Virus record (IMG/VR): IMGVR_UViG_3300037808_000364
Location: 1 to 64,000 of that record
Source: a virus
Length of the DNA: 64,000 bases
Direction: 5' to 3' (one strand)
The notes beneath the pieces were generated by a model. It was not told where the DNA came from. It searched no databases and saw only the letters and a program-made list of their open reading frames with translations. Below, piece by piece: positions 274 through 56,517 of the stretch. Every line of letters starts with the position of its first letter. Positions within the stretch are counted from its first letter, which is position 1. The position numbers and the translations under genes are program-made.

Positions 274-987
274 ATGAGAATTCTAGTACAATTTCCTACA
301 TACGGTCGGGCTGCTAAGTTTATAGACGTGTTATCTAAGTACGTGGAGTTGTGTAGCGATGAGAATGAAATCACTTTTAACATCAATTGCGACACGTCTG
401 ATTCGACTATGACAAGTGAGTATGTGAAGGGTCGTATTATTCGTTTATTACTGGGTCACAAACCCAGCACACACGGGACAATCTACTACGACGAGAATAC
501 TGAGAAGATCAGTGCTATCAACAATCATATTCCTAAGGATGGTTGGGATGTAGTTGTATGTGCTAGTGATGACATGGTTCCACAAGTGGAAAACTGGGAC
601 AGGGAGATCTCACATGCGATGATGGAGTACTTCCCAGACCTTGACGGCTGTGTTCACTTCGACGACGGCAACACTAATGGAGAGCTAATCACTTTCTCAA
701 TTCTAGGGAAAAAGCTGTATGACGAATTTGGATACATCTACCACCCAGACTACAAAAGCCTCTACTGCGACAACGAGTTCACAGACGAAGTTCGAAGAAT
801 GGGCCGAGAACAGTATATTGATAAGGTTATTGTTAGCCACGAGCATTGGAGTATTGAGGGTTCTGAGAACCACAACGAGGTGGATCTAGCTGTTCAGAAG
901 ACACTTCACTACTCAGGCCGGGACGCTCAGGTGTACGAGCAAAGAAAAGCCCTAGGGTTCCCTAAAGAAAGGATTACAAGTGATTAA
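274..987 (+). CDS. GT-A fold glycosyltransferase (GT2-like)
   Basis: N-terminal ILVQFPTYGR strand, VVCASDDMVP (DxD-like), YCDNEF and HEH motifs. Confidence 0.8.
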   Translation: MRILVQFPTYGRAAKFIDVLSKYVELCSDENEITFNINCDTSDSTMTSEYVKGRIIRLLLGHKPSTHGTIYYDENTEKISAINNHIPKDGWDVVVCASDDMVPQVENWDREISHAMMEYFPDLDGCVHFDDGNTNGELITFSILGKKLYDEFGYIYHPDYKSLYCDNEFTDEVRRMGREQYIDKVIVSHEHWSIEGSENHNEVDLAVQKTLHYSGRDAQVYEQRKALGFPKERITSD

Positions 988-1732
988 ATATTCAATAGGA
1001 ATAGTAACGTTTGAACATCGGTTCGAGAAGTTCTTTAAGCCTCTCATTAAGCAGATCAAAGAGTTCCGTCCAGACATTGAGATAATGGTTGCTATCAATG
1101 GAGAGTATAAAGCTGATTTCAATCAAACTTACAGGGCCGATATTCTGAAATTCATTAGTGAATATTCCAATATCTTTCCCAATATACATCCAGAGTTCAG
1201 ATCGTTAGCCAAATTATGGAACAACCTATTAATCAACGCTAGTAATCATCATGTATTACTGTTAAACGACGATGTTTCTATTTCCAATGAAGCGTTTTTT
1301 GATGCCCTAGAGGGAGTCCTAGAATCAGATGGGTTTTTTAAGATCAACGGCAGTTGGAGCCACACCATGCTGGATAGAAGGATCATCTCCGCATTAAACT
1401 GGTTTGATGAGAGATTTTTAGGGGTTGGCGAAGAAGACGGCGACATGGAGTGGCAAATTGGTGTCCAGTCTGATGGGGGAACTATAAAGTCAATACAAGT
1501 ACCAAATATCATCAACCATGTAGACGCAGAAAATGTACTACAGAATATTAAGAAAGTGAACACTAAATACACTCAGTTCAATCTTGATTTTATTCACTGG
1601 CACAAATATGAGATAGATCCCACTGATGGTCAGCAGTATGGGATTAACCCACGGCCACTAGTGTTGAAGAACCCTAAGCCGCCCCTACACACAACTGAGC
1701 CATTTTACTGGGAAAACAGGGGTGAATTATGA
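980..1732 (+). CDS. Glycosyltransferase family 2
   Basis: SIGIVT, LAKLWN, VLLLNDD, WFDERF.GVGEEDGD motifs; GTG start overlapping the previous gene. Confidence 0.82.
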   Translation: MIKYSIGIVTFEHRFEKFFKPLIKQIKEFRPDIEIMVAINGEYKADFNQTYRADILKFISEYSNIFPNIHPEFRSLAKLWNNLLINASNHHVLLLNDDVSISNEAFFDALEGVLESDGFFKINGSWSHTMLDRRIISALNWFDERFLGVGEEDGDMEWQIGVQSDGGTIKSIQVPNIINHVDAENVLQNIKKVNTKYTQFNLDFIHWHKYEIDPTDGQQYGINPRPLVLKNPKPPLHTTEPFYWENRGEL

Positions 1733-2958
1733 GAGTTCATAGACTCAGCAGTATCGATAAACACCGACGACTATTTGACTCCGATATGAATGGCAGATAT
1801 ATAAATGTGTATCAGTTAGATAACGCGGAGTTAGTAGGTGATCTGATATACCCCAACGTCCGAGTGTTATCCCCTAAGGATAATAAGGTATACAACCCCA
1901 TTAACGAGAGGGTTATGTCCCTCCAGAGTGTGGATACAGAGGATTCTATCGAAGATGTAGCTCCAAGAGGAAGAACCGCTGTTAAAGACCCAGTGTTTTT
2001 CTTCATGTATAACACAGATAATTACTACCATTTCCTGTACGACACTATGCCGTATCTACTGTCGTACTTCAGGATGAAACAGAATTACCGAAATCTCCGT
2101 CTTCTAATGACATATCCAAACGCGGAGGCTCGTAAACTGTACCCATTTGTAGTAGAGTTTCTGGAGTTGGCAGGGATTGATATGGAAAAAGACGTTGTCT
2201 TCGCAGACTCTGGAATGTGGTGTAAACCCATGTTTATCTCAGAATCTTACACTCATGGACATGACTCCAACGCTCCGCCTAGAGCAGAGGTGTACGACTT
2301 TCTCAAAGATATAGCGAAGGATATCAAGCCCAATACAAATTATGGACAAAAGCTGTATATATCCAGACGCTCGTGGAAGCATAACGACAAATCTAACATA
2401 GGTACAGACTACACCACACGGAGACGCTTGGCAAATGAAGACAAACTGGTTGACTTTCTTGAATCCATAGGTTATACTGAAGTATTCACGGAAACCATGT
2501 CTACGGAAGAGAAGATAGGGGTTTTCAAGCAGGCCACACATGTGGTTGGTGCTATTGGTGGGGGAATGCTAAATACCCTGTTTTGCCCAAAGACAACTAA
2601 TATTGAGTGTATAGTGTCTCCCACCTTCTTCGATGTAAATGTAAGATTCACTCATGGACTTCCTTCTGGCACTAGGATGTTTGGCAGCACCGAGCACGTA
2701 GAAAAGAGAACCTACAAGAACCATATGAGAGCATCTGACCTTCAGGGTAATGTTGGGGAAATTTGTAGGATGAAGGGTGATGAGGCGGGTATGATCGGAC
2801 TGAAGTATCTAGATAAACAGAGGGTCGCTGGATGGAATCTTCAAGCAAGTTACCGTAGAAAGCTAGTACGTGAAGAAGATTTAAAACTCTTAGATAAAGG
2901 GTTAAATTCTGAATGGACTATGAACCTTGAACAATTTAAGCAGATGATGAATGAATAA
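1729..2958 (+). CDS. Glycosyltransferase family 61 (DUF563-like)
   Basis: NYYHFLYD, LYISRR, RRLANE, F..ATHVVGAIGGGMLN motifs typical of GT61. Confidence 0.85.
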   Translation: MRVHRLSSIDKHRRLFDSDMNGRYINVYQLDNAELVGDLIYPNVRVLSPKDNKVYNPINERVMSLQSVDTEDSIEDVAPRGRTAVKDPVFFFMYNTDNYYHFLYDTMPYLLSYFRMKQNYRNLRLLMTYPNAEARKLYPFVVEFLELAGIDMEKDVVFADSGMWCKPMFISESYTHGHDSNAPPRAEVYDFLKDIAKDIKPNTNYGQKLYISRRSWKHNDKSNIGTDYTTRRRLANEDKLVDFLESIGYTEVFTETMSTEEKIGVFKQATHVVGAIGGGMLNTLFCPKTTNIECIVSPTFFDVNVRFTHGLPSGTRMFGSTEHVEKRTYKNHMRASDLQGNVGEICRMKGDEAGMIGLKYLDKQRVAGWNLQASYRRKLVREEDLKLLDKGLNSEWTMNLEQFKQMMNE

Positions 2959-54994: not shown

Positions 54995-55984
54995 TTAAAG
55001 CCCGATCATTGTAGGCGGAGTGCCGGAAGTTTCTGATGGTGAGTAGCCATATACGACCAAGTCACATCTTTCAGAATCTACATAGTCACCATTCTCATTT
55101 TTGATAACGTATGTTATAGTTCTCTTGGTTGACCCATCATCCGGGCCAGCGTTACCTTCGCGTAGAACAAGACCCACCGTGTTTACTGAGAAGTCTTCCT
55201 GACTACCGCTAGCCGTTGTGGCATTAGCAGAACCAATGGCAACATATGAGTTAGCATCGAAAACACCAGAGGTAAATGTCAACTTTAGCTTACCCTGAGC
55301 TAGACGTTCAATACTTTCAATATTGTGCCAAGATCTCACAACGGGGACATTCCCTACTCCACTAGCGTCAAAAGTACACCAAGCCTTGGCAACACCCTTA
55401 GCAGTATTTGGAATAATAGAATTATCCCTCATAAACTTGATATTACCAGAAGTGTTGATATCCTGCTCTGTAGCCGTGCCGTTGGTCTGAACAAATTGAA
55501 ACCCAACATTGGCAATACCAGATGTATTAATCCACCGTTGATCAGTAGCCATATTTCCAAGCAATGCGTTACCACGAGCAGCATCTACACCGAGACGGTT
55601 GTAGTACTGAGTATGAGTATCATTGCTCAGGTTAAGTAGATTATCATGATCGATACCTGCGTCTCCAAGCCACGGCTCAGTTTGTCGCTGAGTTCTCTTA
55701 GCCACGTCTGTAGCGTTGGGGAAAAACACCCCAGAATCGATAATCAGATCACCATAACTAGCACTAGAAGATGGAGAAGAAGAATCCGCACTACTAACCT
55801 TTACAGAGTTAAAGAACGGAAATTCCACCTCAGTGTCGCCACTAGCTACAACCTTATTGATAGAGAACGCAATGTCCTCCATATTATGACGCACATCATA
55901 TGCGGAAATACCCCCAGCGTTATTATCTGCAAGGTCTGCACTGATGCTCGCTATTAAATCGCCTGAACTTAATTGGCTAGGCAT
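54995..55984 (-). CDS. Putative fibre/appendage protein
   Basis: DH..L.NL..DTHTQY motif and C-terminal AKAWCTFD....VRSWHNIESIERL..GK.KLTF domain common in phage fibre tips. Confidence 0.65.
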   Translation of the reverse strand: MPSQLSSGDLIASISADLADNNAGGISAYDVRHNMEDIAFSINKVVASGDTEVEFPFFNSVKVSSADSSSPSSSASYGDLIIDSGVFFPNATDVAKRTQRQTEPWLGDAGIDHDNLLNLSNDTHTQYYNRLGVDAARGNALLGNMATDQRWINTSGIANVGFQFVQTNGTATEQDINTSGNIKFMRDNSIIPNTAKGVAKAWCTFDASGVGNVPVVRSWHNIESIERLAQGKLKLTFTSGVFDANSYVAIGSANATTASGSQEDFSVNTVGLVLREGNAGPDDGSTKRTITYVIKNENGDYVDSERCDLVVYGYSPSETSGTPPTMIGL

Positions 55985-55995
55985 TTATCTCTCCC

Positions 55996-56517
55996 TTAAT
56001 AATCGAAGAATCCGCCGGTGCCCCTGTGACCACCAGTGCTACTTCCTGAAACGTTGTCTGAACCGGGACTGTAAGGACCAAGGATAGCTTGTCCCGCAAT
56101 ACTACTACCTGCTCGATATTCCATTTCCGCCCTCTCGTACTTTTCGCACAAGTCTTTATAGAGAACGGTAAGGGTGTTAGTTACTCCACGTAGGTCAATA
56201 GCAGAGGGGCCATCTTTGATAGAGATAGCATTTCCTGACTCACTACGTATTTGACTACCCACGATGATACACGCCGCACGTAAGCAAATGAGAGTAATAA
56301 AAGCATGATCTTCTGTTTCCACGGTTGGGTCTGGACTTAGAGTGCAATTTTCAACATTTACACTGTAAGTCTTACCAAACTCGACAGTCATTTGTGTTAA
56401 CTGTGCAGCTACCAATATCGTTGTTTCAATACGATGGGGCGAAAAAGTATAACTATCGGAGTCGATATCATCTATGAGATATCGCACAATAGTGCTCATT
56501 TGACCTTGCCAAGACAT
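55996..56517 (-). CDS. Putative head-tail adaptor (SPP1 gp15/HK97 gp6-like)
   Basis: VRYLIDD....Y.FS helix, LRAAC, ISIKDG.SAID; about 170 aa upstream of the neck genes. Confidence 0.65.
   Translation of the reverse strand: MSWQGQMSTIVRYLIDDIDSDSYTFSPHRIETTILVAAQLTQMTVEFGKTYSVNVENCTLSPDPTVETEDHAFITLICLRAACIIVGSQIRSESGNAISIKDGPSAIDLRGVTNTLTVLYKDLCEKYERAEMEYRAGSSIAGQAILGPYSPGSDNVSGSSTGGHRGTGGFFDY

Follow-up and report, generated by a model that had tools for sequence, protein, structure and literature searches.

To our knowledge, glycosylation of the phage virion is established for a few mycobacteriophages only, and we know of no sequon that directs it. In the GtfA/GtfB systems of serine-rich repeat adhesins an active GT4-type glycosyltransferase (GT) stands beside a GT-B paralogue, and cyanophage sugar-gene clusters like that of S-SM2 are generally taken to act on the host envelope. 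The heptosyltransferases TibC and AAH act on the autotransporters TibA and AIDA-I, where a soluble cytoplasmic enzyme modifies numerous serines located in the loops of a large β-rich adhesin (PMC4358343). Mycobacteriophage GTs modify the phages' own structural proteins, with glycans at the C-termini of the capsid and tail-tube proteins (Freeman et al. 2023, PMC10527164, as reported in PMC12619734). Here we analyze a 64-kb stretch of DNA (positions 1 to 64,000 of the IMG/VR virus record IMGVR_UViG_3300037808_000364, "the window" below), in which a row of sugar genes stands opposite virion genes and a subset of the tail and fibre proteins carries a large excess of the dipeptide Ser-Gly (SG), which we tentatively read as a glycosylation motif. 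The likeness to the mycobacteriophages lies in phage-encoded GTs with the phage's own structural proteins as their proposed targets; the differences are that the capsid protein here has no SG, that the tail-tube candidate is weak, that the signal consists of a dipeptide scattered through giant tail proteins, and that the setting is marine and uncultured.

The window is the opening part of a 112,444-bp virus record whose CheckV completeness is about 67%. A close relative, G006, is complete at 172,984 bp, has terminal repeats and shows the same gene order; by comparison with it the record is a fragment from which about one third of the genome is absent, including two conserved GT4-type genes and the replication genes. 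The plus arm (274–12993) holds the sugar genes in a row. The minus arm holds virion genes, in the order tape measure, a 4153-aa (amino acid) protein, and then proteins of 575, 180, 1710, 1407 and 255 aa. The head genes (terminase, portal, scaffold, cement and true major capsid protein) all lie beyond the window, the capsid gene at 77685–78692. The virion genes of the window that bear on the SG signal are these:

25533–37994, minus strand: the 4153-aa protein, encoded right after the tape measure; main SG carrier, with predicted lectin-like jelly-roll domains and FG-GAP repeats (FG-GAP_2 match).
50232–54977, minus strand: the 1581-aa fibre; second main SG carrier, with runs such as xSGVSGI.
54995–55984, minus strand: a 329-aa virion protein with an excess (SG 9, GS 3, expected SG 3.4, z 3.4).
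23261–25533, minus strand: a 180-aa protein with a strong excess (SG 7, GS 1, expected 1.6, z 4.4) and a 575-aa protein with a mild one (7 vs 4.1).
13076–13843, minus strand: a 255-aa virion protein with a moderate excess (SG 7, GS 2, expected 2.8).
46632–48862, minus strand: a 398-aa protein in the tail-tube position (SG 9, GS 4, expected 5.3, p about 0.06) and a 326-aa protein (6 vs 2.8), both weak.
13893–23259, minus strand: the 1407-aa (SG 7 vs 9.3) and 1710-aa (8 vs 10.2) tail-end proteins, unenriched internal controls.
38010–44192, minus strand: the tape measure, 2060 aa (PhageMin_Tail, 2.2e-15; SG 27 vs 19.5 expected, near baseline).
57456–64000, minus strand: a LamG-array protein of 2540 aa, built from at least ten Laminin_G_3 domains (ten stretches matched, E 2.5e-200), whose gene runs to 65078.

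The hand counts of SG on which the original prediction was built, for the 1581-, 180-, 255-, 329- and 4153-aa proteins, the proteins in the tail-tube and chaperone positions and the 1407-aa protein, were every one reproduced. The 4153-aa protein has 113 SG and 48 GS where 39.8 SG are expected (72 of the SG lie within residues 1–2600), and the 1581-aa fibre has 64 SG and 24 GS with 25.5 SG expected. Shuffling of the sequences shows this to be an excess beyond composition (z 12.5 and 8.9, respectively), and composition is thereby rejected as its cause; among all 400 dipeptides SG ranks first in both giants (z 11.6 and 7.6), with the runner-up below 4. Four orthologues of the fibre show the same (65 vs 23.2, 56 vs 23.4, 59 vs 26.9 and 63 vs 25.7), as do those of the 329-aa protein (8–11 vs 2.3–3.7) and the 255-aa protein (6–9 vs 2.2–3.2, only 3 vs 1.6–2.6 in relatives G004, G008 and G010). 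The pooled observed/expected ratio (O/E) of SG is 2.71 in the two giants and 2.23 in nine smaller virion proteins, a set picked after the counts were seen; it is 1.25 in the glycan arm, 1.21 in eight other large virion proteins and 0.89 in the set of capsid, portal, scaffold, terminase and chaperone-position proteins. Neither the 398- nor the 326-aa protein matched a family, and the name "tail tube" comes from gene order only.

The original prediction had the whole particle coated with glycan, which is too broad. The major capsid protein and the portal have no SG at all, the chaperone-position proteins have 0 and 1, and the 1937-aa protein, the scaffold and the enzymes are at baseline. The 1407- and 1710-aa proteins are likewise at baseline here and show no enrichment in any relative. 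The LamG array, which is of the same fold class as the SG-rich jelly roll of the 4153-aa protein, is also at baseline (SG 32 vs 26.1 expected, GS 36); in it DG is enriched instead (42 vs 24.4).

The excess belongs to the protein and not to the DNA. Both serine codon families, AGY and TCN, encode the SG pairs, and there are 113 SG-coding hexamers in frame vs 10 and 24 in the other two frames, so a DNA-motif origin is rejected. Serine precedes 29% of the glycines in the two giants vs 11% in the remaining large virion proteins of the phage. The other polar xG pairs are depleted in the giants (TG 0.62, NG 0.67, DG 0.72, GG 0.63, PG 0.29), which is not so in the other large virion proteins of the same phage (NG 1.09, DG 1.27, with SG at 1.23), nor in the giant protein of relative G008, where these pairs are also near 1. 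NG and DG are likewise about 1 (0.8–1.3) in phages Syn9, P-SS2, S-SM2 and S-SSM7. Avoidance of Asn-Gly and Asp-Gly deamidation in long-lived marine virions is rejected as a general driver by these values. Drift in GC content is also rejected, as G004 at 34% GC keeps an O/E of 2.33 and G008 at 37% has 1.41, and internal repeats are rejected as the sole cause, since the contexts are diverse, even if some fibrous stretches are still repeat-like.

The flanks of the SG pairs are loose: hydrophobic residues or Pro at −3, Pro enriched also at −1, hydrophobic residues at +1 and +2, and charges depleted before the pair. Acidic residues stand at 0.41–0.66 of background from −3 to −1, with no enrichment after SG, and Asp at −1 falls to 0.35 of background in the 4153-aa protein; this depletion tells against the analogy with proteoglycan O-xylosylation that had been drawn. 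Nor do the sites follow the Bacteroidetes O-glycosylation motif D-(S/T)-(A/I/L/V/M/T), as Asp is depleted at −1 and Gly takes the place of the aliphatic residue after Ser.

In the four comparison phages named above, genome-wide SG O/E is 1.1–1.35 and the large structural proteins range over 0.5–1.9, with one exception. This is a 1552-aa repeat protein of S-SSM7 (NC_015287, 88177–92835), which has 43 SG vs 16.7 expected (O/E 2.57) in SGxhxhSG units, its repeats including IGSGTFTYSGAG and TGSGITTISGSA. S-SSM7 is a cyanomyovirus unrelated to the window phage, with a very large sugar-gene cluster, and no sequence similarity was found between its 1552-aa protein and the window proteins. Because the four phages top out at 1.9 save for this repeat protein, an O/E of 2.5–2.9 kept up over 4153 residues that are mostly free of repeats is exceptional, though not without a parallel.

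When orthologues are compared in four pairs, no dipeptide is better kept than SG in three of the comparisons, and in the remaining one it comes third; at 58% overall identity 75% of the SG pairs are retained, and serines before glycine are kept at 77% vs 42% for other serines. Across 75 orthologues of the 4153-aa protein SG O/E is 1.4–3.0, with GS about 1 throughout. Full-length homologues in the G008/G010 clade have 50–53 SG vs 35 expected, and full-length orthologues at 34–39% identity have an O/E of 1.4–1.8. In 73 ungapped columns where SG is conserved in the window's clade, G008 keeps it at 30%, no more than follows from generic conservation of S and G (0.41 × 0.60 = 0.25), and the replacements in G008 are TD, GN, DN, NG, ED and similar pairs. 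An alignment of the jelly-roll domain from 62 sequences has only 4–5 universal SG columns (segment positions 35, 134, 247 and 379 among them). Most SG sites of the window in this domain occur in 10–60% of the high-SG sequences and read KD, EN, TD, NK or DD in the low-SG clades. Many SG sites are recent, clade-specific gains, and the density meanwhile holds at 2.2–3.0.

An AlphaFold2 (AF2) model of residues 880–1340 of the 4153-aa protein, made from 62 sequences, has a predicted local distance difference test score (pLDDT) of 73.6, with model residues 1–320 mostly above 85; an earlier AF2 model of 1001 residues from 16 sequences failed (pLDDT 40). The model predicts a concanavalin-A/LamG-like jelly roll. 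Its best fold matches in the PDB are to binding domains of clostridial toxins, in their lectin-like N-terminal halves, at a template modelling (TM) score of about 0.28, which on this model is generic fold likeness only, and neither giant protein had a match in sequence searches of the PDB. The confidently modelled part holds 15 SG pairs: six adjoin a strand's first residue, two stand in turns that follow a strand immediately, seven occupy loops or isolated bridges and none lies inside a long strand or helix. Where surface loops had been expected for the SG serines, most fall in loops, in hairpin turns or directly before β-strands, and in the model this placement would fit exposed acceptor loops and a structural cap equally well. 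The fold itself does not require SG, because orthologues of the same fold use ordinary turn residues and the LamG array is unenriched. Since only SG is in excess while the other polar xG pairs are depleted, and this only in certain proteins, these observations show a force that singles out serine, in some proteins and some clades and not in others, and that acts at turn positions which the fold leaves free.

The sugar-gene island of the window consists of the following:

28–273, plus strand: the 3' end of p298, a conserved glycan-core gene of about 290 codons (BLAST matches to 291–298-aa proteins of G001, G006, G007 and G009).
274–1732, plus strand: genes for 237- and 250-aa proteins with no Pfam match at E<0.01 (250-aa: weak Glyco_tranf_2_2, E 0.056).
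1729–2958, plus strand: a GT61-family glycosyltransferase in the variable section of the island (PF04577, E 2.5e-17, 63.9 bits vs a cut-off of 27).
2951–5223, plus strand: a PRK-like kinase, a TylF-type O-methyltransferase, a class II aldolase/epimerase and a 102-aa protein (Pfam PRK 2.6e-35, TylF 2.5e-11, Aldolase_II 1.2e-30).
5220–8910, plus strand: 272- and 162-aa genes, a 516-aa double sugar-1-phosphate nucleotidyltransferase (NTP_transf_3, NTP_transferase) and a 295-aa gene.
8907–10681, plus strand: a GT2-family glycosyltransferase (Glyco_tranf_2_4, 1.5e-8) and a GDP-L-fucose-synthase-like epimerase/reductase (Epimerase, 2.8e-51).

The Pfam matches bear out the O-methyltransferase and the nucleotide-sugar enzymes that had been predicted for this arm; of its "at least 4" GTs two are firm (GT61 and GT2) and one is weakly GT2-like. 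The NCBIfam matches of the kinase (phosphoribulokinase-like) and the aldolase (L-ribulose-5-P 4-epimerase-like) are both under cut-off, as is that of the epimerase/reductase to GDPFucSynFcl (3.5e-81, 273 bits vs a cut-off of 500). The 516-aa nucleotidyltransferase is 45% identical to an S-SM2 "dN-sugar pyrophosphorylase", and the GT61 protein is 39–42% identical to homologues from two Synechococcus phages, S-SM2 and Bellamy. Orthologues of the 237-aa gene occur in G001, G006 and G007, those of the 250-aa gene in G006 only. A hydropathy scan found no membrane-spanning segment in the 18 plus-arm proteins of the window; in the complete G006 genome it found no protein with at least three such segments and one small island protein with a single one. 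With no membrane proteins in the island, the acceptor should therefore be cytoplasmic/soluble or host-supplied; judged by its genes the glycan machinery is without a flippase, polymerase or polyprenyl-phosphate transferase of its own and is not like Wzx/Wzy or ABC surface-polysaccharide loci.

An island is present at the same place in every fuller relative, none of which is without glycosyltransferases. Its content is partly variable (a GT47-like protein, a sulfotransferase, DUF6625 and GT1 in G007; three GT1 and two GT2 in G004; RgpF-like and DUF5672 proteins in G008). A conserved core upstream of this variable part encodes a 374-aa GT-B protein, a 327-aa GT4 protein and proteins of about 140, 240, 254 and 298 aa (G006, 32919–37801). 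The record begins inside p298, so the GT4 pair upstream of it is missing from the record. The 327-aa enzyme matches Glycos_transf_1 (1.2e-17 for the G007 orthologue) and, in the PDB, the C-domains of BshA, PglA and TarM. In its EX7E region the second Glu (LEAM) is conserved and the first position is Ser; in the 374-aa paralogue EX7E is eroded in the window's clade and intact in G004 and G008. The 254-aa core protein is nucleotidyltransferase-like, with LAENYGYR replacing the usual glycine-rich loop, and the p298 orthologue of G006 has a weak Glyco_trans_1_2 match.

The original prediction had invoked GT61, the family that includes EOGT. The window, G003 and G006 are the only places where GT61 was found: neither a family search of G007, G008 and G009 nor BLAST with the window proteins in G001 and G004 detected it. 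The giant proteins of G001, G004, G007 and G009, among the relatives that gave no GT61 match, have SG O/E of 2.3–3.0, so GT61 cannot define the motif, and S-SM2 has a homologue of it without a comparable excess. The SG contexts also lack the Cys-framed EGF pattern of an EOGT site. GT61 is therefore rejected as the reader of the motif.

In six records (G008, G010, G026, G032, G035 and G055; e.g. G008 28289–28813) the 327-aa GT4 is shortened to 174–221 aa, with the N-terminal domain and the last helix kept and the whole C-terminal donor-binding domain gone; as the open reading frame is intact in six metagenomes, the short protein probably functions as something other than a transferase. SG O/E of the giant protein is 1.41–1.78 in these six records, against a median of 2.40 (range 1.40–2.98) among the 41 records whose enzyme is full-length (Mann-Whitney p 0.0004, a value inflated by relatedness). 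In a quick tree two full-length members are nested among the deletion records and have intermediate O/E of 2.06 and 2.12. This contrast agrees weakly with the idea of a motif. The p240 core gene was rejected as a correlate of SG, since three records high in SG, namely L233, L240 and L260, gave no match to it.

The best single explanation, which we put forward tentatively and with somewhat less than even confidence, is that Ser-Gly is a glycosylation motif in a subset of the tail and fibre proteins. Ser-Gly, usually followed by a hydrophobic residue, would be a short recognition motif placed by selection in exposed loops, hairpin turns and strand starts, mainly of the 4153-aa protein and the 1581-aa fibre, to a lesser degree of the 329-, 180- and 255-aa proteins, and not over the whole particle. 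We infer that these serines are modified, that the modification is a sugar, and which enzyme starts it; the motif would most likely be read by glycosylation machinery that the phage itself encodes and that works in the cytoplasm. In this scheme the conserved core (an intact GT4-type enzyme, the second GT-B paralogue and the degenerate-looking enzyme relatives) would attach the first sugar to serine, and the strain-variable part of the island (here GT61, GT2, the O-methyltransferase, kinase, aldolase, nucleotidyltransferase and GDP-fucose-synthase-like enzyme) would build and decorate the remaining glycan. The prediction of a selected sequon for virion glycosylation thus survives in part: the signal is not composition, DNA motif or dictated by the fold, and GT61 as the reader and the whole-particle scope have been given up. 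A bolder form of it is less likely than not, namely that Ser-Gly-hydrophobic is a true sequon at which the conserved cytoplasmic GT4 of an abundant, uncultured marine phage lineage with genomes of about 170 kb glycosylates more than 100 serines in loops of the fibres and the giant tail-tip protein, the hypervariable rest of the island giving each strain its own glycan and so a virion "serotype".

Among known systems, TibC and AAH resemble this proposal, in which many serines in the loops of a large β-rich protein would likewise be glycosylated in the cytoplasm. The differences are that the candidate enzyme is GT4-type and that the acceptors would be jelly-roll and fibrous phage tail proteins, not a β-helix passenger. 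GT9-type PF01075 gave no match in this record or in four complete relatives, with control genomes matched, and because the GT9 enzyme is absent the phage system is not a member of the BAHT family. The window clade's core recalls GtfA/GtfB, in that the 327-aa GT4 keeps the LEAM Glu and the 374-aa paralogue has an eroded EX7E; however, EX7E is intact in G004 and G008, so that a "pseudo-enzyme partner" is not general, and the acceptors are not serine-rich repeats. Phage S-SM2 (GU071095, 154113–158172) shares five genes with window 1729–8063 at 38–56% identity, inside a long run of sugar genes: the double nucleotidyltransferase, GT61, the class II aldolase and the 102- and 162-aa proteins. Its large structural proteins have no strong SG excess (O/E 0.7–1.9), and the window lineage adds the GT4 core and the SG signal. 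The shared block suggests that genes have been exchanged with cyanophages, and perhaps that the host is cyanobacterial or co-occurring. The tape measure of the window also contains three copies of a module of about 50–70 aa that are 47–56% identical to a segment of a 766-aa S-SM2 protein.

Several observations weigh against the reading of Ser-Gly as a glycosylation motif. Thr-Gly is depleted, and threonine is accepted by many O-glycosyltransferases. Proteins that would be expected to be exposed (the capsid protein, the LamG array and the 1407- and 1710-aa proteins) are unenriched. Because the architecture of the shortened GT4 is identical in all six records, its deletion is probably a single event, so the comparison amounts to one phylogenetic contrast; four records with an apparently intact GT4 and paralogue are also low (O/E 1.40–1.80), and the deletion clade retains a 567-aa fibre with 19 SG vs 5.6 expected. 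Parts of the fibres contain repeat-like SGxhxh segments, S-SSM7 has its SG-rich repeat protein, and strand starts and hairpin turns are also the places where a purely structural Ser-Gly would be expected. These last points lead to an explanation that is nearly as likely as a glycosylation motif: SG may be a structural habit of the lineage, serving tight turns, β-bulges and strand N-caps in β-rich fibre and adhesin domains with no modification, and the island may serve another target, such as the host envelope via host carriers or another soluble acceptor. The position of SG directly before strands and in hairpin turns would suit such a habit, as would the few SG columns that are universal even in low-SG clades, repeat-like runs such as VSGVSGI in the 1581-aa fibre, SGTMNL-type runs in the giant protein and FSGVFDNK in the G008 fibre, and the SGxhxhSG repeats of the S-SSM7 fibre. 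Lineages low in SG with intact glycosyltransferases, and comparable sugar-gene clusters in cyanophages such as S-SM2, are in keeping with it too. Turn statistics, however, show no preference for Ser over Asn, Asp or Gly before Gly, and these residues are depleted only in the SG-rich proteins. Homologues of the same fold use ordinary turn residues, the LamG array of the same virion shares the fold class and is unenriched, SG sites are gained clade by clade while their density holds at 2.2–3.0, and base composition offers no explanation (G004 vs G008).

The same evidence of selection specific to serine, protein and clade would apply if SG were read by something else, through phosphorylation, acylation, an assembly chaperone or avoidance of host or environmental proteases, and the incomplete match between SG density and glycosyltransferase state leaves some room for this; but no kinase, acyltransferase or protease candidate was seen adjoining the virion genes, where the glycan island is the only large conserved enzyme set nearby, and we consider such a reader unlikely. 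Less probable still is that the island glycosylates the phage DNA and has no relation to the virion proteins. Phage glycosyltransferases that hypermodify DNA are on record (bioRxiv 10.1101/2023.12.21.572611; PMC13326640). An island without membrane components would also suit a DNA target. Against it, an enzyme of the ThyA family, the usual route to hydroxymethyl pyrimidines, is present in just two of five complete relatives and a C5 cytosine methyltransferase in none of the five, and the SG signal would be left unexplained.

At the junction of the two arms lie four genes that are present in G001, G003, G004 and G006–G010:

10636–12993, plus strand: genes for 163-, 253-, 258- and 118-aa proteins.

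They are conserved at 50–72% identity in every relative (the 163-aa one lower, 21–65%) and, as far as can be seen from their sequences, are not glycan enzymes. The 253-aa protein groups with clusters labelled "homing endonuclease" or DUF559, and was on that account rejected as a hidden glycosyltransferase; the label is an odd one for a strictly conserved, syntenic gene. Just past the capsid gene, at 77090–77554 of the genome (L002, 90–554), is a gene for a 154-aa protein of the podophage GP4 fibre-I gp80 family (PF23140). It has 7 SG vs 2.5 expected, and the solved GP4 protein (8jou) shows NN and TG at the aligned N-terminal SG sites. The capsid protein had no relative among the cultured phages of the phage collection, which also gave no DNA match, and a PHROGs search gave nothing useful; relatives of the capsid protein are encoded on 381 IMG/VR stretches, the best 80 of the 381 at least 80% identical.

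This analysis adds to the initial observation the exclusion of GT61, the independence of SG from the fold together with the turnover of its sites, the pattern of xG depletion and the GT4-deletion contrast. The lineage is common in marine metagenomes. Even if it is purely structural, the SG excess is an unusually strong and clean case of lineage-specific dipeptide selection. If the tail proteins do carry phage-made glycans at a simple motif, the sites would be predictable from sequence alone, and this would bear on host recognition, on the stickiness of the particles and their decay in seawater, and on the purpose of the large, variable sugar islands of marine phages.

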